In this document: positions 2,633 to 15,216 of the stretch, piece after piece
Layout of the letters: each line of letters opens with the position of its first letter
How positions within the stretch are numbered: the first letter of the stretch is position 1
Origin: a bacterium
Lineage (GTDB): Bacteria; JAAXHH01
Assembly: GCA_965200485.1 (NCBI GenBank)
Contig: CBDAUD010000002.1
Coordinates: 242,743 to 306,742, forward strand
Direction of reading: 5' to 3'
Length of the DNA stretch: 64,000 nucleotides
Translations under genes and position numbers: made by a program
The notes under the pieces: model-generated
What the model was told of the DNA's origin: nothing
What the model saw: only the letters and a program-made list of their open reading frames with translations
Databases searched by the model: none

Positions 2633-2753
2633 GATATAACGTCGTCGATCCGGAGCGAACCGTGCTTTCGTCGGTCTTCCGCCGGCAGTCTTGCCGACGG
2701 AACTTCAGGCTGGTCTTGTCATTATAGCGTGGCCATCGCACCGCATCAACCGA

Positions 2754-5516
2754 TTAATCGGCGCTTGGACTGGTGTTGTACGATTCTGCGTCCCTGGCGG
2801 CTGCGACGATCGAGTCGGCGATACCATTCGACCCGGTAGCCCAGCAGGTCCGCCATTGTTTTTTGCCGCATGATTTTCTGATTTCTCTTCCCAGATTGGT
2901 TCGCATGTAGCCCATGAGCACCAGCATGTCATGCGCTGCCAGCTCCGACTTCACCTCTTCCAGATACTTGTTCCAGTTGCTGCTCCAACCCGAAAAGATG
3001 AAGGTGACGTCAACATGAAGCGTCCGCTTCTTCAGGTTTTCTCGAATGTCACTTTCCAGTTTGGCCTGTCTCTCGTCCCCTCCGATGAACAGTACCTTCA
3101 GTGGTTTTGAGGCCTTCCATGCAATCTCTTCCTCGGAAGACTCGGTAGGTGTATCTTCTGACTTCAATAGGGCTTTCAGCCGATTGCTTTCCTGCACATA
3201 GTAAGTCTCAGGCAGTCCATACCCGCGTATATGCTCAAGAATGCCTTTGGCGGCGTACAGATCGTTTTTGGCTGCATATCTATAGAAAAGCTGTTTCATG
3301 ACGACTAGGGCTTCTTCGAAGTCTCCACAGGCCTCTAAGCCGTGCGCCCTGGCGACAATCGCTTCCTCCTCACTCCAGGCAAGCTGGTAATTTGCAGGAA
3401 AGCGCAAGAGGGCTTGAAACGCTTTGGTGCCTGCACCTTCAATTGCAAGGTGCTCTAGTTCACCTAGGATTTCCTCGGCTTCGTCACGTCTTCCGGCCAT
3501 CAGGCAGCCGCCAAGACAGTTTCTGAGGATCTTTGCAGATTCTTCACATCGTCCAAGTTTCCGGGCTTTTTCACGCAATGCCGCTGAAACGGTTCCCGTG
3601 GCGACTGCCGTGTCGTTGGATGCAAGCACGTCCAGGGCGTCTTCGCTGCCCTGTTTCAGCAATACGGAAACGAACTTCGAAAAAACTTCGGACGAAGTGC
3701 CGATTTCCAGTCCCGCCAACGTTGGATCAATCAAATAGGAGGGAAAAGCGATTCCCGATTCCATCGCGTCCATCATGATGCCGGCTGCGTGGTTCAGGTC
3801 ACCGGAGGATTGGGCCCGTCCGGCCTTTGCTATGCCCAGGTACAGGTTAGTGCGTCCGATTAGGGACTTGCTGTAGGACGTCGGTTTACTGCGGAAGTGG
3901 CCCCGCGCACGCTCGAAGTGATTCGGGGCCTTGTCGAATCGCCTGTTGCCGATTTCCAGCACACCCAGACAGTAGTGTCCATGGGAAGCATACTGAACGT
4001 CTTGGCGGATGGACTGCCGGTACTGGTTCGAACCTTCCTCCAGCCTATCCATGAAATCCGCCAGATCCGCATTCTTCGGTGGCAGTGAGACCTCTTCAAG
4101 CCGGTTGAAATCTCCGGCGAGCATGCCGAGGTCAGCATGCACCATCGCCTGGTTGTTTGGATCGGGTTCCAGCTGTTGAAGATCGGTCAGGAATTCCCGG
4201 GCTTTCTCGTGTTCATTCAACAACCGAAGACAGTGCGCCTGACGCCTGCGCACGGTGAGGAATCGGGCGTGCGCAGGCGGGAAGCCCTGCTTTTCCAGAT
4301 CGCGGACTGCGTCCATCAGCCTGTCAAAGACCAGTCTTGCTTCGCCCGGGCCTTCTTCGTACAGCAGGTCGGTGCCGATTTCAAGCATCTCCTGAAACAG
4401 CGGGCTACCGGGTTTTCGGATTGCCTTGGGTTTTACGAATTCGGCAACCTCGGCGGGACGCTTGGCATGTTTCAGGGACCGGACGACGTACAGGGCCGCT
4501 TCATCTGTCGCTGCGTCTTCACCGTCCCCAAGACGCCGTACGATGGGATTGTCGTCATACACCTTCAGGATGTCCACGTCACGCGCCAGGTGCGCCAAGC
4601 CGTTTACTACACCGGCCCAGTACCACCGGCTACCTTCCGAAACCAGTCCCAGACCGAGCTGTCTGTCAAACACCGCATCCCTGAAACCGTTGTGGAAGTG
4701 AGTATGATGTCTCTGTGCGTTAAGACTCAGGAATTCATCCACTATATCGTGTATTTCGTCTTCCTTCGGGGCACCGGCAATCCCCGACTTCGAGGCGGCA
4801 ATCGCATTGCGAACCAGTGTATCGAGCGTTGTCAGGCGATCCGAATCTGGACTGCTTTCACGTTCGGCATCTTCGTACCGGTCTGCCCCGTCAGGCTCGA
4901 TTGATTCGGGTTCGACAGGCCTTGCGATCTCGTCACAAGCTGTAATTCCTGCCAGCCAACTCAAAAGATGCGGTTCCAGGGGGGTTCGCTGACACGCGAG
5001 CGTCATGAAATAGAGGACTACATTGCGCCATTCGTGGTTTTCGAGGAGGGTATTCGCGGCTCCATGTACGGAATCTTGCGACAGGCCAGTCCCCGCATTT
5101 TCCAGAGATTCCGACATTTGGCCGTTTTCGTTCTGTATACCAAGCGCATCCAGAAAGGTCTTGCACATGCCGTCCTGAACGGTGTGGAATGCGTGAAGCA
5201 AACGGATGGCGAAGACGTTGGTCAGAGACAGGTTTTTCAGGACTTCGACGATTTTCCCGTTATCCCATTTCGCAACGGTCCTGGTTCTGAAGTTGCGTGC
5301 CGAGGCGATGAGCGCGACCAGGTGGTCGCGCCCGTCGTCCTGATCGATGTATGAAGTCAGCGCGACCCGTTTTTCGTGGTCTTCAAGGCACATCCACAAT
5401 CGTTGGCCACTCAGTCGCTTCGGGTTTTCTATCAGGCGCGCCAGGATTTGCGGGAGTTGTCCTATGGCGTTTGCGTCCCGACTGCCCGAGCCGGTACTCT
5501 TTTCAGGTTGATTCAT
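2754..5516 (-). CDS. Orphan 920-aa protein: unknown N-terminal domain, acidic linker, TPR-like helical repeats, C-terminal Rossmann/CheY-like (DUF2325-like) module
   Basis: Single long ORF with TAA stop at 2754-2756. Visibly lower GC than flanks (many AT-rich codons). No Walker A, nuclease, protease or kinase motif recognised. C-terminal segment KVLFIGGDERQAKLESDIRENLKKRTLHVDVTFIFSGW...HDMLVLMGYMRTNLGREIRK has an alternating beta-alpha pattern typical of small flavodoxin-like folds. Confidence 0.7.
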   Translation of the reverse strand: MNQPEKSTGSGSRDANAIGQLPQILARLIENPKRLSGQRLWMCLEDHEKRVALTSYIDQDDGRDHLVALIASARNFRTRTVAKWDNGKIVEVLKNLSLTNVFAIRLLHAFHTVQDGMCKTFLDALGIQNENGQMSESLENAGTGLSQDSVHGAANTLLENHEWRNVVLYFMTLACQRTPLEPHLLSWLAGITACDEIARPVEPESIEPDGADRYEDAERESSPDSDRLTTLDTLVRNAIAASKSGIAGAPKEDEIHDIVDEFLSLNAQRHHTHFHNGFRDAVFDRQLGLGLVSEGSRWYWAGVVNGLAHLARDVDILKVYDDNPIVRRLGDGEDAATDEAALYVVRSLKHAKRPAEVAEFVKPKAIRKPGSPLFQEMLEIGTDLLYEEGPGEARLVFDRLMDAVRDLEKQGFPPAHARFLTVRRRQAHCLRLLNEHEKAREFLTDLQQLEPDPNNQAMVHADLGMLAGDFNRLEEVSLPPKNADLADFMDRLEEGSNQYRQSIRQDVQYASHGHYCLGVLEIGNRRFDKAPNHFERARGHFRSKPTSYSKSLIGRTNLYLGIAKAGRAQSSGDLNHAAGIMMDAMESGIAFPSYLIDPTLAGLEIGTSSEVFSKFVSVLLKQGSEDALDVLASNDTAVATGTVSAALREKARKLGRCEESAKILRNCLGGCLMAGRRDEAEEILGELEHLAIEGAGTKAFQALLRFPANYQLAWSEEEAIVARAHGLEACGDFEEALVVMKQLFYRYAAKNDLYAAKGILEHIRGYGLPETYYVQESNRLKALLKSEDTPTESSEEEIAWKASKPLKVLFIGGDERQAKLESDIRENLKKRTLHVDVTFIFSGWSSNWNKYLEEVKSELAAHDMLVLMGYMRTNLGREIRKSCGKKQWRTCWATGSNGIADSIVAAARDAESYNTSPSAD

Positions 5517-5610
5517 GGTCTTTCCTCGAACTCCGGATTATGATGCGGTGATCAGGACAGTGAATCGCGTACTCGAACGACTGTCCGTTCTTGCGTGCAG
5601 GTCTGCATTT

Positions 5611-5658
5611 TCGGTGATTGTCGGTGCATGCCTGTATCTTCGGTGCATATCTGTATCT
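5611..5658. repeat. Tandem 19-bp direct repeats (tcggtgcatNNctgtatct x2 plus a partial third copy) in the leader upstream of the 920-aa orphan gene
   Basis: Copy 1 5621-5639 tcggtgcatgcctgtatct. Copy 2 5640-5658 tcggtgcatatctgtatct. Degenerate copy tcggtgattg at 5611-5620. Adjacent 7-bp-stem inverted repeat ggacagt...actgtcc at 5555-5586. Confidence 0.8.
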
Positions 5659-5923
5659 CTAAAGTATTGGACACCGGACCACGAACAACTGTATTTTGAA
5701 CTGGCTGAATGCAGATGGAGGAGCTGCTATCAAACATCATTTTCCGCCAGCTGCAATGAATCCTGTAGTGGAACGAGAGCTGAAGCAGCAACGGACTCCG
5801 AAACCGGCCGATCGCCGAAAGGCGCACATCCACGGTCGGCACGGCGAAGCCCTTTGCGTATGCGCATCATCCCGGCTTGACCGAAAAAAACATCCCGGTC
5901 CGACCGGCTACCGGTATGCTGAT

Positions 5924-6463
5924 ATGATCAAAATCCGCCCGATTCGCTCTATGTGCTTCGCTTTGGTCGCGTTCGTCCTGCTGGCTGCGGGATCGGTCCA
6001 TGCCCAGGGCGCGGAGTTTGCCCTGCACGGCGGGCGTGCGCTGGACGAGTACAGGAACGGCTTGGGCGGCGGTGCATACCTGAACATCCCCACCGGGATC
6101 AGAACGATTCACGTGGGAGCGCGGGGGACCTACCATATCCCCACGAAAACGGACGAGGGCGAGATTTCCCTGCTGATGTACGGGGTTGACGTGGGCGTTA
6201 CGCTCCTGTCCTCTCCCCTGGTCGTCCGCGCGGTAGGCGGGTTGGGACGCGCGCAGGCTTCATATGAGCAGGTGATCGTGGAGGGAGATGTCCGAACGGA
6301 TATTACCCGGACGACGAACACTTACTACATGCAGCCGGGCGTCCTGGTCGGCGTCTCGCTCGGCCTCGCCTTCGTAGGCATAGAGGGCCGATATGTCCGC
6401 CTGGACAAGGGCATCCGCACGTATGCCGCGTACGCCACGGTGGGCTTCAAGGTAGGACGCTGA
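5924..6463 (+). CDS. Outer-membrane beta-barrel protein (OmpA-like/porin-family barrel)
   Basis: ATG at 5924 begins MIKIRPIRSMCFALVAFVLLAAGSVHAQGA (signal peptide, cleavage after AQG/A). The mature part has alternating hydrophobic beta-strand periodicity and a C-terminal aromatic-ending strand (ATVGFKVGR). The ORF-track start at 5696 is an upstream extension without a signal peptide. Confidence 0.55.
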   Translation: MIKIRPIRSMCFALVAFVLLAAGSVHAQGAEFALHGGRALDEYRNGLGGGAYLNIPTGIRTIHVGARGTYHIPTKTDEGEISLLMYGVDVGVTLLSSPLVVRAVGGLGRAQASYEQVIVEGDVRTDITRTTNTYYMQPGVLVGVSLGLAFVGIEGRYVRLDKGIRTYAAYATVGFKVGR

Positions 6464-6467
6464 TCCC

Positions 6468-6884
6468 ATGTCGCTGCTCGACTCCTGCCGAAACGAGATA
6501 GAAGCGTTGCACCGCTGTTTCGATGACTGGTTCAATGGCCGCGTGCCCAAGACCACGGCGTCTTTTGGCCGTATCGAGTCGGCGCTGGATGAAGCTTTCG
6601 TGATCGTCATGCCCCAGGGGAGGAAGGTGGCGCGCGCGCCGTTGCTGAAAGGCCTCTACGACGCGCACGGCGCCCGTTCGGGTATTCGAATCTGGATTGA
6701 GCAGGTCCGCGTGCTGGCAGAAGATCGCCAGCTTGTCGTTGCCGAATACGAGGAATGGCAGGAGGAAGACGGGGAGATCACTTCCCGGCACAGCACCGCG
6801 GTCTTCCGCCGCGACAGCGTCCTGCCGGAAGGGCTGGTGTGGTTCCGCGTGCACGAAACCTGGTTCGACGGTGCGTCTGCGTGA
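6468..6884 (+). CDS. Hypothetical protein, NTF2-like/SnoaL-like fold (DUF4440-like)
   Basis: 138-aa ORF immediately downstream of the OMP gene. Pattern of conserved aromatics (WF, W-E-W, WFRVHETWF) resembles NTF2-like proteins. Weak assignment. Confidence 0.4.
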   Translation: MSLLDSCRNEIEALHRCFDDWFNGRVPKTTASFGRIESALDEAFVIVMPQGRKVARAPLLKGLYDAHGARSGIRIWIEQVRVLAEDRQLVVAEYEEWQEEDGEITSRHSTAVFRRDSVLPEGLVWFRVHETWFDGASA

Positions 6885-6949
6885 AAGCCCTCGCTTAGTC
6901 GAACCGCATCGCCGATGCCGAACCTACCGGAATCAGCGACGGTATCCAT

Positions 6950-7957
6950 TCAGAATCGGGTGGATTCGAAGGCTTCATAGGGCGGCGATACGTTGAACTC
7001 GCCCGCGATTTCCTCCAGTTTCAGGCGGTGGTCGTCGCTCAGCGGCACCCCTTTCGCCTCGTTTTCCTTTTCCCACCGCCATTCCATCCCGCCGGGTAAT
7101 TCAGCATGGGGCATGCCGGGAAACGGTTTCATGCTTCTTGCTTTCGAAACGAAATCGTCCAGGGTTTGCTCGAACTCCTCCACGTCCATGAAGTGATCGA
7201 TCCTCATCGCCAGCAGGAAGGCGCCCTGGTTGGAGTCCCATTTGGACGCTGGTGGCTGCAGCTCGGGCTTCCAGATGCCGGCCAGAATCCCCCCCAATGT
7301 CTGGAGTGCGACCCCCAGGCCCAGACTCTTGGCAAAAAGGGCATAGTGTTCTTGGAACAGCGCGTCCTGGTATCCCATGAAGACGGCGGCCATATCGAGC
7401 ACGAGCGGAGGTTGGCTCCGCGTCGGAAAGGCCAGGCTCATGGGCGATCCCCCGCTCGCGGACATGATTACTTTGTTCGGGTCGGGGGCAACGCGGTGCG
7501 TGGAGACCGCCCAGCCCGCGCACCCGTGTTCGATGGCCATGCGGGAATAGTTCCCGGCGGCGCCGAAGTGGTAGTGGTTGCGGGTGGTCACCGCGCCGAG
7601 GCCGTGGCCCCGGGCCTTTTCGATGGCGATCTCCATGCCGCGGTGGGACGGGCCATACCCCATGCCCCCATCCCCGTCAAGTACCGCGATCGTCTCCGAT
7701 TCACGCACCATCGTCACGTTAGGACGCGGATTCACTTCGCCGTCGCGAAGTTTTGGCAGGTATCCGAGGGCCTGCTGCGTTCCATGACTGTATATGCAGC
7801 GTTTGTCGGCCGTTGCGAGCATCCTGGCCATCAGCGCCGCGTCATCGTCCCCCATGCCGGTCGCAATGAACAGGTTCGCAATGAAAGCCGAATGTGTTTC
7901 GTACGGTACCCGGATGCCATGGTCCGGCGGGGTGTTCCGCATGGGGATGGAGGACAT
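6950..7957 (-). CDS. Ldh_2 family malate/L-lactate/L-sulfolactate dehydrogenase
   Basis: 335-aa ORF. Sequence pattern (GHGLGAVTTRNHYHFGAAG, STHRVAPDPNKV) matches the type-2 malate/L-lactate dehydrogenase family (PF02615). Confidence 0.7.
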   Translation of the reverse strand: MSSIPMRNTPPDHGIRVPYETHSAFIANLFIATGMGDDDAALMARMLATADKRCIYSHGTQQALGYLPKLRDGEVNPRPNVTMVRESETIAVLDGDGGMGYGPSHRGMEIAIEKARGHGLGAVTTRNHYHFGAAGNYSRMAIEHGCAGWAVSTHRVAPDPNKVIMSASGGSPMSLAFPTRSQPPLVLDMAAVFMGYQDALFQEHYALFAKSLGLGVALQTLGGILAGIWKPELQPPASKWDSNQGAFLLAMRIDHFMDVEEFEQTLDDFVSKARSMKPFPGMPHAELPGGMEWRWEKENEAKGVPLSDDHRLKLEEIAGEFNVSPPYEAFESTRF

Positions 7958-8021
7958 GTCTTCAACCGCCTTTGTGTTTGGTTGCGTGGATGCCCGCGGC
8001 GCCCGCGGGGACCGGATCGGG

Positions 8022-10739
8022 TTACTCCGTCACCGCAGCGCCCGCGTGGGCCGGACCGCGGAATATCGCATTCAGAAACAGGATATTCAAACCATCCATG
8101 TAGGCCCTGAAGTTCGGATCGGCCGTAAATCCGATGGCCATGCCGCGGCCGTTTCGTTCCGCCATGAGCAGCGGCTTGTAGGCCAGCTGCCTCGTGCTGC
8201 CTTCCCAGGCGAATCCGCTAGCCAGCACTTCGTCCGGGCCGAGGAAGTTCGCCACGTTGCTGCCTTCGTTCAGCTTGAGTGGCGCGAAGATCGAACTGCC
8301 GCTGACCAGCGCATGCACGGTCTTGTCTCGTCCGGCCGCGAGCCAGTGATCCGGGTCGAGTTCGGCCCTGAGCAGTACGCCCTGGGCGGAAGGCGGTGCG
8401 GAACCATCGGACTTCAAGGCCTGCCGGTACGCCTCCTCCGTTTCGAAAATGCGTCCGGAAGCGTTTCCTTCGCCCGAATCCGCACCCTCTGCCTTGCGCT
8501 TTTCTCCGGCCGCGTCTTCCCGCGCCGTCGAGAGCAGGCCGGTAGCCTCCTCCGCCAGGTAAGCCGTGGCGCCGCTGCCCAGCGCGACCACCGTACCGCC
8601 TGCGCGTACCCAGTCCCTGAGTCGCCGGGTTCCTCCTTTGCCGAGCACATCGCCGTAGGATGGGCCGAACCCGGGGTCCGGCAGCAGCAGCACGTCGAAG
8701 TCTCTCAGATCCGCGGTTGCGAGCTGGCGTGTACGAACAGGCGTAACCGGGTACCCGATCTGGCGTTCAACGACGAAACGGGTGGCGCCGGCATTGTATG
8801 CGCGCGTCGGGCGGTCCCACGCGAGGGCGATGCGGGGTTTGCGCATGTAGACGACGTTGTTGCTGCCGAAATTGGGCCCCTCGTCGACCCAGCCCGTATC
8901 CGTCGCGATGACCTCCGCCCCCGAGGACGCGGCGATCTCCGCCAGCGTCTCGTGCAGGTGGTCCGGGTTTTCCTTGACTTTGAAGATCAGCGTGCCGGAC
9001 GGATAGCTCCGGTCGCCCTGCACGAAGGGCAGGTCGGTGCTGAACACCCGAAGTCCGGTCCGGTGCGAAGCCGCCAGCAATCGTCCGGCGGCCTGAGTGC
9101 CCCACGGAACGAGGTAGGCCACCTCCGGACGGCCTCCTTCGACCGATCCTGTGGGGATCATGACGGGATCGATCAGGGCGACATCGCCCCGCACCGCCTG
9201 GTCCGCGGCCACGGCGTCGACATTGTACATCAGAGGCAGCGACCATGCCGTCACGTCGTAGATCTGATCGTTCATGCCCTTGCTCCGACGGCGCTCCTGC
9301 TCCTGGATGAAGTCCGCTTCCATGGCGACGTGCGGGTCGATGAGCGTACGTATGAGGCGCTTCGACGGCTGTGCGAGATCAATCACGTAGCTGCCCGCGG
9401 GATACGTTTCGCCGCCCGCCCGGAAGTCCGACCCGGCCTGTTGCACTTCCACGCCGTGGTAGGCCATGATCGCGGCCAGTTTGTCTATGCCCGATGTGTT
9501 GGCATCGGGTCGGCGCGGCAGAATGTAGGCCCGGATCTCTTCCCGCTGTCCTTCTTGAATCGCCGAAGCGCGGTAGGCGTAGAAGTCCGCCAGGAGTTTC
9601 TCCCGATTGACGGCGGCCGCTTCGGCTGTGGAAATGGAGGCGACAAAGTGATGCCGGACCGTGTCCCGGAAATGCATGACCGTGCTATCGCTTCTCCGGA
9701 CGACAAGTCCCCGCGCGGACGCCTGTTCGTAGGTCATGGCCACGCTGCCGTAGTAGGACGGCCAACTGGCGCCGTAGCCGGGATAGAATGCGTCGAAAAT
9801 CTCCCGTGTGAAGTAGGAGAACCCGTAGTGGTCGAACCACTTCGCGTTGTTCTTGCCGAACAGCTGCAGACTTTCCCGCTGGTCTCGGGCGAGGTGGGGG
9901 TTGTAGGGCACCGCTTCGGGCGCAAAGTAGTAGGTGGCATTGGAACCCATCTCGTGGAGATCGACGAAAACCGGGGGATAGTAGTCCTGCAGAACCTGCA
10001 CCCGGCCGAGCGTCTCGGGCTGGGTCAGCGAGATCCAGTCCCGGTTCAGGTCGAAGTGGTAGTGGTTGGTTCGCCCTCCCGGCCACGGTTCGTTGTGCTC
10101 GGCAGCCAGCGGACTGGCGTTCGGCTCCATGCCTTCGGCAATCTGGTAGTTGTGGACGAAGCGATCCCGTCCGTCCGGATTCTGTACCGGATCGATCATC
10201 ACGATCGTCTCCGCCAGGATCCGGTCCACAACCGGGTCGTTGCGGGCGGCCAGCAGGTGGTAGGCTGTGAGGAGCGCGGCGTCCGAGGGCGAGATCTCGT
10301 TTCCGTGCACGCTGTAGCTCAGGTTGACGATCACCGGCAGCGTCGCGATCAGGCTGTCGGCGCTTGTCCCGGGCGTCACCCTGGGGTCGGCCAACCGTTT
10401 CATGCCGTCGCTGACCTCGGCAAGCCGGCCGATGCGTTCCGCCGATCCCACGAAGGCGTATACGAGCTTGCGCCCCTCCCAGGACCGGGCGTATTCCAGC
10501 AGGTGCACCTGGTCGGGCACCGCCGCTTCGAGCGCTTCCAGGTAATTCAAAAGCCCTGCATGGGCGGTGATGCGATCACCTATCCGATACCCCAGAATCT
10601 CCTCCGCCGTGGGAATCGAAGGGTCGTATTCGGTCCCCGGCCAGTAGGCGAAGTCCTGCGCCTTCGACGGCCCTGCGACGATGGCCGCGATGAGCAGCAG
10701 GCAAAGGGTTGTTGGCAGAACGCATGGCCGATTCATCAA
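8022..10739 (-). CDS. Secreted M14-family zinc carboxypeptidase (large, multi-domain)
   Basis: 905-aa ORF with an N-terminal signal peptide (LCLLLIAAIVAGPSKAQD). Zinc-binding HxxE motif (SVHGNEISP) and downstream NPDGR motif typical of M14 carboxypeptidases. Long C-terminal extension. Confidence 0.8.
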   Translation of the reverse strand: MMNRPCVLPTTLCLLLIAAIVAGPSKAQDFAYWPGTEYDPSIPTAEEILGYRIGDRITAHAGLLNYLEALEAAVPDQVHLLEYARSWEGRKLVYAFVGSAERIGRLAEVSDGMKRLADPRVTPGTSADSLIATLPVIVNLSYSVHGNEISPSDAALLTAYHLLAARNDPVVDRILAETIVMIDPVQNPDGRDRFVHNYQIAEGMEPNASPLAAEHNEPWPGGRTNHYHFDLNRDWISLTQPETLGRVQVLQDYYPPVFVDLHEMGSNATYYFAPEAVPYNPHLARDQRESLQLFGKNNAKWFDHYGFSYFTREIFDAFYPGYGASWPSYYGSVAMTYEQASARGLVVRRSDSTVMHFRDTVRHHFVASISTAEAAAVNREKLLADFYAYRASAIQEGQREEIRAYILPRRPDANTSGIDKLAAIMAYHGVEVQQAGSDFRAGGETYPAGSYVIDLAQPSKRLIRTLIDPHVAMEADFIQEQERRRSKGMNDQIYDVTAWSLPLMYNVDAVAADQAVRGDVALIDPVMIPTGSVEGGRPEVAYLVPWGTQAAGRLLAASHRTGLRVFSTDLPFVQGDRSYPSGTLIFKVKENPDHLHETLAEIAASSGAEVIATDTGWVDEGPNFGSNNVVYMRKPRIALAWDRPTRAYNAGATRFVVERQIGYPVTPVRTRQLATADLRDFDVLLLPDPGFGPSYGDVLGKGGTRRLRDWVRAGGTVVALGSGATAYLAEEATGLLSTAREDAAGEKRKAEGADSGEGNASGRIFETEEAYRQALKSDGSAPPSAQGVLLRAELDPDHWLAAGRDKTVHALVSGSSIFAPLKLNEGSNVANFLGPDEVLASGFAWEGSTRQLAYKPLLMAERNGRGMAIGFTADPNFRAYMDGLNILFLNAIFRGPAHAGAAVTE

Positions 10740-10748
10740 GGTACCTCC

Positions 10749-11576
10749 TCACACCGGATCGGGGCGGTTTGTACGGGTCGGATCGCTGGGGTAGATCAGC
10801 GGGTTCTGGGCTTCGTCCTTCAGCAGGTCGCCGATCTGGATGGTTTTCGTAATACGGTCCGGGAGTACATTGGGTATGCCGTTGAACCGGCTTTCGTCGG
10901 GCATATAGGCACAGGTGAACGCCCGGCGCGGACGGGGCGTCATGTTGGGGTTGGCGGCACGCACCATCAGGCCATTGTGAAAGGAACATCCCCCCGCCGG
11001 CATGACGACGGGCACGGGGTCCATCCTGCCGAGCGCGGGGTAGGTCTCGAACATGGCGCCCACGTGGTTTCCTGCCGCGGGATGGTCGTCAAGTCGGGCC
11101 TTGTGCGAACCGGGAAGAAAGAACATGCACCCGTTCTGGAGGGTCACTTCGTCCAATGCGACCCAGATGGTGATGGCGTGCGTCGACGCGAAAGACCACT
11201 TGGTATTGTCCTGATGCCAGGTGGTGGGATTTGCCCAGGGCATCTTGATCAGCGCCTGATCGTGCCAGATTCGGATCCCATCGACCCCTTCCAGGTCTGC
11301 CGCCATCTTGCCCAGCCGGCTATCCAGCATCAAGGCGCGAACCCCGTCATGGTCCATCCAGAGGTTGACCCGCTGCCGGAACACGACTTCGGCATCCGCC
11401 TTTCTGCCAATACGATAGGACCCCTCGGGCATTCTGTAGTCGTCCCGAAGCGCGACCGCCTCGTCCACCGCCGACCGCCAGGTATCGAGTTCGGTCCCGC
11501 TAAGGAAATCCGGAATGACGAGGAAGCCGTTCTCCCGATAGGCGGCGATCTGCGCGTTCGTCAGTTCATTGTTCAT
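10749..11576 (-). CDS. Phytanoyl-CoA dioxygenase (PhyH) family Fe(II)/2-oxoglutarate-dependent oxygenase
   Basis: 275-aa ORF. PhyH signature region WHQD (HxD iron ligands) and distal His (GGCSFHNG). Confidence 0.8.
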   Translation of the reverse strand: MNNELTNAQIAAYRENGFLVIPDFLSGTELDTWRSAVDEAVALRDDYRMPEGSYRIGRKADAEVVFRQRVNLWMDHDGVRALMLDSRLGKMAADLEGVDGIRIWHDQALIKMPWANPTTWHQDNTKWSFASTHAITIWVALDEVTLQNGCMFFLPGSHKARLDDHPAAGNHVGAMFETYPALGRMDPVPVVMPAGGCSFHNGLMVRAANPNMTPRPRRAFTCAYMPDESRFNGIPNVLPDRITKTIQIGDLLKDEAQNPLIYPSDPTRTNRPDPV

Positions 11577-11608
11577 TTCATTGCGCTTCCTTCATGCAAA
11601 TGGGTTTC

Positions 11609-12457
11609 TCATGCGGACCAGACCAGTGGGAACATTTCGCAGGCCATGGGATCTCCCGGAACCAGGCCGCCCGTCTCCGTTGGAGAGATTTCCCACGGCC
11701 GGTTGGTGAAACGGGCATCGTCTCCGAGCCAGCGGGTGACCAGGACGCGGCGTGCCTCGGAGAGCGACTGGTTGCCCGCCGCCCCGTGAAGCGAACGCAT
11801 GTGAAAGGCGACGACGTCGCCCGGTTGCAGGTCCCATGCCAGTATCTCGTAGTCTTCCCGGTGTTCGTCGATGGGCGGTACATCCTCGAAGAGCATGCCG
11901 CCCGGCATGGGTGCGCCCGCGGCGTCCTCAACCGCATAGTTGCGCTCCGTGGCGAACTTGCGGGGGACGAACCAGCGGCTCCAGTTGTGCGATCCCCGGA
12001 CGAATTGAACGCAGGACGCCTTGGTCACAGCATCCAGCGGCATCCACAGCGACACGTTCTGGCGTCCGTCTACCGGGTAGTAGGGCTGGTCGTGGTGCCA
12101 GGGCGTCCGTTTCAGGGTCCCCGGCCACTTGATCAGCAAGTGCTCGTGATAGAATACCGAACTGCCGGAATCCATGAGCCGCGCCGTCATGGCGCCCGCT
12201 GGCGACTGGTGCACGAAGTCGCGGTATTCGGGGATGCGCTGCCAGTTGCAGTAGTCGTCGAAGAAACCTCCCGGATCGTCCCCGCCCGCTTTCAGCGTAC
12301 CCGCATAGCCGCTGGGTTCGGCGAGGTTGCGGGACACGCCGGCTTGCACGACCGACACCCAGTGCGGAGAGAAGGCTTGCCGAATGCATACCGCGCCGTC
12401 TTCCCGGTAACGCCGGACCAGTTCGTCGGTGAGCACTTCATCCAGTTCCTTTTCCAC
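11609..12457 (-). CDS. Phytanoyl-CoA dioxygenase (PhyH) family Fe(II)/2-oxoglutarate-dependent oxygenase (paralog)
   Basis: 282-aa ORF. WHHDQPYYP (HxD) and distal H (FHMRSLHGA). Tandem with the preceding PhyH gene. Confidence 0.8.
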   Translation of the reverse strand: MEKELDEVLTDELVRRYREDGAVCIRQAFSPHWVSVVQAGVSRNLAEPSGYAGTLKAGGDDPGGFFDDYCNWQRIPEYRDFVHQSPAGAMTARLMDSGSSVFYHEHLLIKWPGTLKRTPWHHDQPYYPVDGRQNVSLWMPLDAVTKASCVQFVRGSHNWSRWFVPRKFATERNYAVEDAAGAPMPGGMLFEDVPPIDEHREDYEILAWDLQPGDVVAFHMRSLHGAAGNQSLSEARRVLVTRWLGDDARFTNRPWEISPTETGGLVPGDPMACEMFPLVWSA

Positions 12458-14223: not shown

Positions 14224-14285
14224 CGCATTATCCGTATCCGTTTATGTTCATGGTTTCAAGTTCACGGCCGGTCCGTTGTGGACCC

Positions 14286-14339
14286 GGTACCATAGCCCGA
14301 GGAACGCTGCGCGGTACCGTAGCCCGCGGAATGCTGCAC
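14286..14339. repeat. Two adjacent imperfect 27-bp direct repeats upstream of the SBP_5 gene
   Basis: ggtaccatagcccgaggaacgctgcgc at 14286-14312 and ggtaccgtagcccgcggaatgctgcac at 14313-14339 (22/27 identical). Lies 60-115 bp upstream of the minus-strand start at 14223. Confidence 0.75.
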
Positions 14340-15043: not shown

Positions 15044-15064
15044 GATACCCTATCCTGGAGCTCG

Positions 15065-15092
15065 TCGTTCGCCTGTTGTCGTTCGCCTGTTG
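15065..15092. repeat. 14-bp tandem direct repeat x2 (tcgttcgcctgttg) in the divergent bioY / sugar-isomerase intergenic region
   Basis: Identical copies at 15065-15078 and 15079-15092, followed by a degenerate ccgtttgcc. Confidence 0.7.
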
Positions 15093-15216
15093 CCGTTTGC
15101 CCGCATCTCGCACCCGGGCGTCAGCGGTCCGTTTGCCTTGTCACCGCATGCCGTTTCATATACATTGGCGGGCGTTTGTGTCAACCACGTTTTTCTAAAA
15201 GAAAGGGAGGGTCGCG

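Follow-up and report, generated by a model that had tools for sequence, protein, structure and literature searches.

What are the tandem repeats that lie between two divergent genes of an uncultured Gemmatimonadota bacterium: an array of regulator binding sites, part of an RNA, or a duplication of no particular function? The repeats are found in a stretch of 64 kb, hereafter the window, within a 407-bp intergenic segment at 5517-5923. On one side of this segment is an orphan gene on the minus strand (2754-5516), which encodes a 920-aa protein that combines TPR repeats with an alpha/beta domain at its C-terminus. On the other side, on the plus strand, is the gene for a small outer-membrane barrel (5924-6463), a 179-aa protein with a signal peptide. 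The segment was delimited from the ORF map, and the start codons flanking it were confirmed by orthologue alignment. It would act as a control region common to the two back-to-back genes. An earlier note on this DNA had described the segment as a 400-bp leader of the orphan gene with 19-bp direct repeats and a stem-loop, and had proposed either an operator array or a cis-acting RNA. That the region is AT-rich, as the note had said, is borne out by its composition, with a GC content of 47-48% at 5501-5800 compared to about 62% in the flanks.

The two adjacent 19-bp direct repeats are present as previously described. We found TCGGTGCATGCCTGTATCT at 5621-5639 and TCGGTGCATATCTGTATCT at 5640-5658, contiguous, head to tail and identical at 17 of 19 positions (89%). 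TRF assigned this tandem a period of 19, 2.0 copies and a score of 62, and reported another repeat, 10 nt in two copies, at 5607-5626. With the unit read in the register GTGCATNNCTGTATYTTCG, a fuzzy search and a repeat finder revealed an older full copy at 5595-5613 with four mismatches. The 10-nt repeat and the older copy together indicate that the array is composed of copy A, a 10-nt insert, copy B and copy C. The degenerate third copy that had been reported before is thus real, but it is better parsed as a 10-nt partial unit (5614-5623) plus the older copy.

In total, the array is 67 nt long (5595-5661) and comprises three copies and the partial unit, all read on the plus strand. The positions of the array, -43 to -109, are counted from the inferred transcription start of the barrel gene near 5704. 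On this count, copy A (GTGCAGGTCTGCATTTTCG, 5595-5613), with 15/19 identity (79%) to copy B, lies at about -109 to -91, and the partial unit (GTGATTGTCG, 5614-5623), part of the period-10 repeat, lies at -90 to -81. Copy B (GTGCATGCCTGTATCTTCG, 5624-5642) follows at -80 to -62 and is the unit at 5621-5639 in the register of the earlier note. Copy C (GTGCATATCTGTATCTCTA, 5643-5661), the former 5640-5658, lies at about -61 to -43 and adjoins a conserved AAAGTA box. The copies are spaced 29 and 19 bp from start to start. Each 19-mer can also be split into two half-units, about 9.5 bp long, that start with GTGCAT and GTATCT; neither period matches helical phasing (about 10.5 or 21 bp).

When up to three mismatches were allowed, the 19-mer was found at no other place in the window (64 kb), and two matches were reached in 0 of 100 shuffles. 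Random sequence of the same composition is expected to hold about 0.3 comparable tandems per 64 kb. These rates, together with the lack of another copy in the window, indicate that the 19-bp duplication is real and beyond chance.

To place the repeats in the region, we turn to the one block in it that is conserved. In an alignment of the spacer with the two nearest syntenic relatives (L002 and L003), the block at 5661-5697 on the plus strand was the only part conserved, and it was also detected by a promoter scan. We take this block as the sigma-70-type promoter of the barrel gene. It contains the AAAGTA box (5661-5666), the -35 element TGGACA (5668-5673), an 18-nt spacer and the -10 element TATTTT (5692-5697); as in sigma-70 promoters, the hexamers are near TTGACA and TATAAT, stand within the usual 16-18 nt of each other, and lie upstream of a gene. 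The same architecture was found in 10/10 orthologous loci, 120-285 nt before the barrel start codon, with the pattern (A/G)GAAAGTA-(T/A/G)TGGAC-N19-TAT(C/T/A)(A/T)T, in which the boxes are kept and the spacer sequence is variable. Upstream of the AAAGTA box, nothing was conserved in any lineage among these 10 loci. The promoter is the sole conserved element of the region and, for this reason, probably functional. This agrees with the earlier proposal, in which the spacer serves the barrel gene as its divergent promoter region. We infer from consensus and conservation that transcription starts near 5704, which gives a leader of about 220 nt (5704-5923, plus strand) with no sign of structure (folding z-score -0.64).

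Other readings of these elements were considered and rejected. A sigma-54 promoter does not fit the conserved block, in which the GG-N10-GC spacing is not found. CTGTAT(C/T)T is common to the repeats and the -10 region, as if the latter had been duplicated; the flanks cannot be aligned beyond a core of 8-9 nt, and we left this likeness as a coincidence. An SOS (LexA) box was also rejected, since all CTGTAT copies have the same orientation and no inverted partner.

A second match to the consensus, TTGATG-17-TATAAT, is located at 2749-2721, just past the stop codon of the orphan gene and ahead of the Lar_N gene. This match suggests that the sigma-70 consensus applies in this organism. We know of no characterised promoters for Gemmatimonadota, and a literature search gave nothing relevant. 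The consensus AAAGTA-TGGAC(A/G)-N18-TATCAT is useful as an example of Gemmatimonadota promoter architecture.

The barrel gene has 34 homologues. The AlphaFold model of its product (pLDDT 85) is an 8-stranded barrel, for which Foldseek returned Ail, OmpX, the OmpA transmembrane domain and the OprF N-terminal domain. The label of outer-membrane beta-barrel, previously given to the gene at 5924, is supported by this model. The public gene call starts the ORF at an ATG at 5756 (P0011, 235 aa), whereas other homologues are 175-179 aa long, with three exceptions. The public 235-aa extension is probably wrong.

The orphan gene has a candidate promoter of its own, close to its start codon. It was detected by scanning on the minus strand (5537-5564), with TTCACT (5564-5559), a 16-nt spacer and CATAAT (5542-5537), and is a candidate by consensus match only (9/12). 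A ribosome-binding site, GAGGA, is located at 5527-5523, and GAGG precedes the ATG in L002 and L003 as well. Use of the proximal promoter would place the repeats at -65 to -131 relative to it and leave them untranscribed. The array would then fill the non-conserved spacer between the barrel promoter and the probably proximal promoter of the orphan gene. It is therefore doubtful whether the segment should be called a 400-bp leader of the orphan gene: the promoter and 5' UTR of the barrel gene take up about 260 bp, and the best orphan promoter is proximal.

Transcription of the repeats would require a start further away, and there is one weak site for it. TTGTTC-16-TACTTT on the minus strand (about 5687-5660) overlaps the barrel promoter, and transcription from it would give a 140-nt leader with the repeats at its 5' end. 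A cis-acting RNA or small RNA, transcribed as the orphan leader or as a separate molecule, could then comprise both the repeats and the stem-loop. However, the better promoter match lies downstream of the repeats, and the sequence is not conserved in L002 and L003. A permissive Rfam scan of 5000-6500 (E <=10), the covariance-model check that the earlier note had suggested for the leader, returned nothing meaningful; its two matches, to a CRISPR direct repeat (18 bits) and to mir-33 (15 bits), are at chance level. The folding energies of both strands equal those of shuffles (z-score +0.09 for the minus strand and -0.64 for the plus strand), and a consensus fold of six orthologous barrel-gene leaders gave no structure (-0.99 kcal/mol). 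Because Rfam, folding and conservation all lack a signal, the RNA reading can be dropped, and we consider it very improbable that the repeats act as RNA.

The inverted repeat GGACAGT-N18-ACTGTCC is present at 5555-5586 (arms 5555-5561 and 5580-5586), as the earlier note had it, but it is no more than expected by chance. At least one 7-bp stem with a loop of 3-30 nt occurs in 45% of shuffles of the 407-nt region, and the mean over the window is 1.0 per 407 nt. The inverted repeat overlaps the -35 element of the candidate proximal orphan promoter. On the minus strand at 5880-5907, inside the barrel-gene leader, there is also a weak terminator-like hairpin, CCGGTCGGACCGG, followed by a T-run. This hairpin probably arose by chance as well, since its stem has five pairs and shuffling gives an expectation of 0.5 per region.

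The ORFs previously listed at 5515-5880 (plus strand) and 5552-5842 (minus strand) exist in the ORF map. The 121-aa, 96-aa and 56-aa translations of the region had no tblastn match in any related locus. A conserved small ORF in the spacer was rejected, as these translations have no counterpart in the related loci.

We compared the locus with related loci from Gemmatimonadota metagenome assemblies. The core synteny consists of ADH, GFO/IDH, Lar_N, RraA, the barrel gene, an S6PP_C-like gene, Ldh_2, peptidase M14 and PhyH. Between RraA and the barrel gene there is a slot whose content varies: L011/L012 and L016 have nothing there, the window and L001-L004 have the orphan gene, L009 has ankyrin-repeat genes together with a DDE transposase, and L017/L018 have small gene fragments. 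RraA is absent altogether from the window. Distant homologues of the orphan gene are found in unrelated contexts, one directly after tRNA-Pro and one beside cas3 and cse1.

The orphan gene also differs from its neighbours in sequence. Ten homologues of its product were found among 5.8 billion proteins, the best with 59% identity. Profile searches gave faint matches to Pfam TPR only, and nothing in PADLOC, NCBIfam or PDB sequences. The C-terminal 150 residues are modelled as a generic flavodoxin-like alpha/beta fold and gave no specific structural match. The composition of the gene is atypical, with a GC3 of 0.62 compared to 0.77-0.81 in the neighbours. Its identity to the L002 orthologue is 59%, compared to 68-88% for the neighbours, so that the orphan gene evolves faster than they do. 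The variable slot and the atypical, fast-evolving gene in it indicate that the orphan side of the spacer is insertion-prone and fast-changing.

Could the repeats then be a scar of insertion, that is, an att-like remnant or a target duplication at the junction of the orphan cassette? The array ends exactly where the similarity to relatives starts, at the AAAGTA box, the orphan gene is present in some loci only and has an atypical composition, and one of its homologues adjoins tRNA-Pro. A short-read contig of the same strain (L020), identical in sequence, ends at window position 5699. However, neither the far end of the gene (2633-2753) nor the rest of the window has a matching repeat, and no integrase or transposase gene is located near the locus in the window. 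Moreover, L002 and L003 have the same insertion and do not have these repeats. The junction is not specific either, since no lineage shows conservation upstream of about -45, whether or not it has the orphan gene. An insertion scar is therefore highly improbable in our view.

How much the absence of the array from relatives can tell depends on how close these relatives are. An independent assembly from another sequencing run (L019) is 100% identical through the array, and the rest of the orphan's cluster consists of fragments from the same strain, also 100% identical. A metagenome scan for closer relatives returned three loci. The closest non-identical relatives compared were at 81% identity for the barrel protein and 59% for the orphan protein, and anything closer was 100% identical. 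As no compared relative falls between 81% and 100% identity, the non-conservation of the array says little.

We next weigh the proposal that the repeats form an operator array. On this reading, they would bind a response regulator or another protein that occupies tandem sites, and would act on the promoter of the barrel gene, of the orphan gene, or of both. The position fits an upstream activator. The array lies between two divergent promoters and directly upstream of the -35 element of the conserved promoter, which is a functional distance for such sites, and it is set in AT-rich DNA. It has three copies and a partial unit, and its 19-mer is divisible into half-units of about 9.5 bp. Its geometry recalls the F1-F3 sites of OmpR at ompF.

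Further sites of this kind should be visible elsewhere if the repeats belonged to a regulon. Even with up to five mismatches allowed, the unit did not recur in the 64-kb window, and neither the array nor the unit was found in L002/L003, in the 10 orthologous promoters, or in any of 19 other loci fetched. Within the 64 kb and the loci covered, these searches thus gave no sign of a regulon or dispersed element. A scan of viral contigs with the unit gave one single-copy match in coding-like DNA, which we take as chance, and the whole 407-bp segment had no similarity to plasmid or phage records. In the leaders of six orphan-gene homologues, no common k-mer exceeded the shuffle level; the best, ATACAGA in 3/6 leaders, is typical of the best found in shuffles. 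A domain search found no regulator gene among the neighbouring genes. Also against an operator, periods of 19 and 9.5 bp lose helical phase along the array, the barrel promoter has no conserved upstream site in any lineage, and the full-unit near-identity of the copies points to a recent duplication rather than to maintained contact bases. The operator proposal of the earlier note thus keeps its fit to an upstream activator position, while the searches for further copies, for a shared leader motif and for a nearby regulator speak against it. We consider an operator array possible but unlikely, although it is the chief rival to the explanation that we prefer.

In a variant of this proposal, the array may be a young, lineage-specific operator, in which duplication multiplied the site of a DNA-binding protein that would now co-regulate the barrel gene and the rare TPR orphan gene from between their promoters. 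We give this variant slightly less weight than the operator proposal as a whole.

Tandem duplication is common in the window and in the spacers of relatives. At a score of at least 40, TRF detected 11 arrays in the window (12 rows, one array being described by two of them). Of these 11, two besides the present array are intergenic and close to gene starts, with unrelated units, at 14285-14337 (27 nt, two copies) and 15064-15101 (14 nt, 2.7 copies). The same spacer contains unrelated arrays in L001 (28 nt, 5.4 copies, inside the barrel-gene leader) and in L002 (12 nt, two copies).

Taken together, these data lead us to favour, by a modest degree, a duplication born of slippage and lacking a dedicated function, located in a variable spacer beside a conserved promoter. 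The contiguity of the copies and their 89% identity over the whole unit suggest recent duplication rather than long-maintained binding sites. The nested older duplications (copy A and the 10-nt repeat) suggest repeated slippage at one spot. Along with the absence of the array in relatives and the frequent duplications nearby, these features point to repeated slippage in a fast-evolving spacer. The copies are contiguous, head to tail, of high identity and lineage-specific, as in VNTR-type duplication. The most probable origin of the array is a succession of slipped-strand or unequal-recombination duplications, which may have been seeded by the short repeat TCGGTG. Since the orphan side is an insertion hot spot, DNA of the spacer would turn over quickly. 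At most, a presumably neutral array would alter what lies upstream of the barrel promoter between -43 and -109, in sequence and in spacing. Repeated duplication at the same spot could also reflect selection for more sites, and this counts against the reading of an array that has no dedicated function.

Slippage raises the question of whether the copy number of the 19-mer still changes within the population and thereby turns one of the two flanking genes on or off. Phase variation classically involves tandem repeats upstream of the promoter of a surface protein, and the nested duplications show that the tract has changed in length before. However, the independent assembly is identical through the array, and a low rate of slippage is expected, as there are only two to three imperfect copies of a long unit. 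A phase-variable promoter element is, in our judgement, highly unlikely.

By itself, the array is of little importance; it is a real but ordinary feature. What the analysis offers is a parsing of the region into a conserved barrel-gene promoter and a variable, insertion-prone spacer that holds the repeats. Were a regulator to bind the repeats, the locus would show that arrays of binding sites can arise by duplication beside newly acquired genes, but none of the findings calls for this.

Finally, we compared the array with known systems of direct repeats. Phase-variable contingency loci carry repeat tracts in the promoters of surface-protein genes, with units of 1-9 bp in many perfect copies. 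The array is similar to them as a repeat tract beside the core promoter of a surface-protein gene. It differs in its unit of 19 bp and its two to three imperfect copies, and no length variation was seen between identical assemblies of the same strain. The iterons of plasmids and phages, which are direct repeats of 17-22 bp at origins of replication, share with the array the 19-bp unit, the direct orientation and the AT-rich setting. However, the locus of the array is chromosomal and syntenic across species, it has only two to three copies, no Rep-type gene or Rep-like domain was found, the adjacent gene encoding a TPR protein, and there is no similarity to plasmid or phage records.

Tandem sites for response regulators are found upstream of porin promoters, with F1-F2-F3 at ompF and C1-C3 at ompC for OmpR, and the pho boxes for PhoB. 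Like these, the array has contiguous direct units of about 20 bp at about -40 to -100 of an outer-membrane-protein gene. However, OmpR and PhoB sites have a period of 20-22 bp (half-unit 10-11), compared to 19 bp (about 9.5) in the array, and their copies are degenerate whereas those of the array are near-identical. The array also differs from them in having no other sites in 64 kb, no orthologous conservation and no nearby regulator gene. Minisatellites of the VNTR type, which arise by slippage, typically vary in copy number, whereas here the two independent assemblies, both of the same strain, showed no such polymorphism. In other respects the array resembles them: its non-coding copies are contiguous, head to tail and near-identical, with older copies nested among them, and unrelated arrays are found both in this spacer in relatives and elsewhere between genes in the window.

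We compared window 2633-5923 with loci L009, L011, L012, L016, L017 and L018, and found a hot spot of variation in the slot from RraA/Lar_N to the small outer-membrane barrel gene. The contents of the slot differ among the relatives. Some carry nothing there, and others carry the orphan TPR gene; in further relatives the slot is occupied by ankyrin-repeat genes together with a DDE transposase, or by fragments of STAS/SulP genes. In L002-L004, L011/L012 and L016-L018, Lar_N and the barrel gene are separated by an RraA-like gene. The window lacks this gene and shows no remnant of it (2633-2753). Directly past the orphan stop and ahead of Lar_N, the minus strand holds a strong promoter-like site, TTGATG-17-TATAAT, at 2749-2721.

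At the other end of the slot, the public gene call (protein record P0011) moves the start of the barrel gene out to the ATG at 5756, giving a protein of 235 aa. Except for three, the other barrel homologues are all 175-179 aa long and begin at the signal peptide. The true start is therefore probably 5924, not the ATG at 5756. Immediately 5' of the barrel gene start, we also observed an A7 tract flanked on either side by a small direct repeat, CATCCCGGCTTGACCG / CATCCCGGTCCGACCG, with 23-nt spacing (window 5868-5906). A weak terminator-like hairpin was seen on the minus strand within the same interval.

The short-read contig L020 (run SRR33991096) is 100% identical to window 7959-5699. It stops at window 5699, which is at the -10 hexamer of the barrel promoter and 41 nt from the 19-bp repeats. 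This end could reflect a break in the assembly, located either at the repeats or where strains differ in sequence.

Two further tandem repeats were identified in the window, both intergenic and near a gene start. The first, at 14285-14337, has a 27-nt unit in two copies (88%), and the second, at 15064-15101, has the 14-nt unit GTCGTTCGCCTGTT in 2.7 copies and is located in another divergent promoter region. The units of both arrays are unrelated to the 19-bp unit. Among the relatives, the Gemmatimonadota MAG contig CAZZNP010000003 (L001) is rich in tandem arrays (2367-2519, 959-1124, 1677-1797 and 9410-9538), and one of them, a 28-nt unit repeated 5.4 times, lies within the 5' UTR of its barrel gene. 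On this contig the orphan-gene homologue is present as two ORFs, 5914-7770 and 7772-8683, and this split suggests either a frameshift or an error in the assembly.

We found two long antisense ORFs on the plus strand of the window. One (7794-11789, 1331 aa) lies opposite the peptidase M14, Ldh_2 and PhyH-like genes and had no match in a Pfam search; the other (4137-4904, 255 aa) lies opposite the orphan gene. Both ORFs appear to be artefacts that stem from the high GC content.

The family of the orphan protein (window 2754-5516, minus strand) is very small, with 10 members among 5.8 billion proteins. A homologue in L007 adjoins tRNA-Pro, and one in L005 adjoins cas3 and cse1. The orphan protein combines TPR repeats with a conserved C-terminal domain, in which the pattern GG.E.Q ... 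GW...W ... HD ... R.T..G...R ... WR.CW..G..G is invariant. No specific structural match was found for the modelled C-terminal domain, and the predicted model suggests a flavodoxin-like fold.
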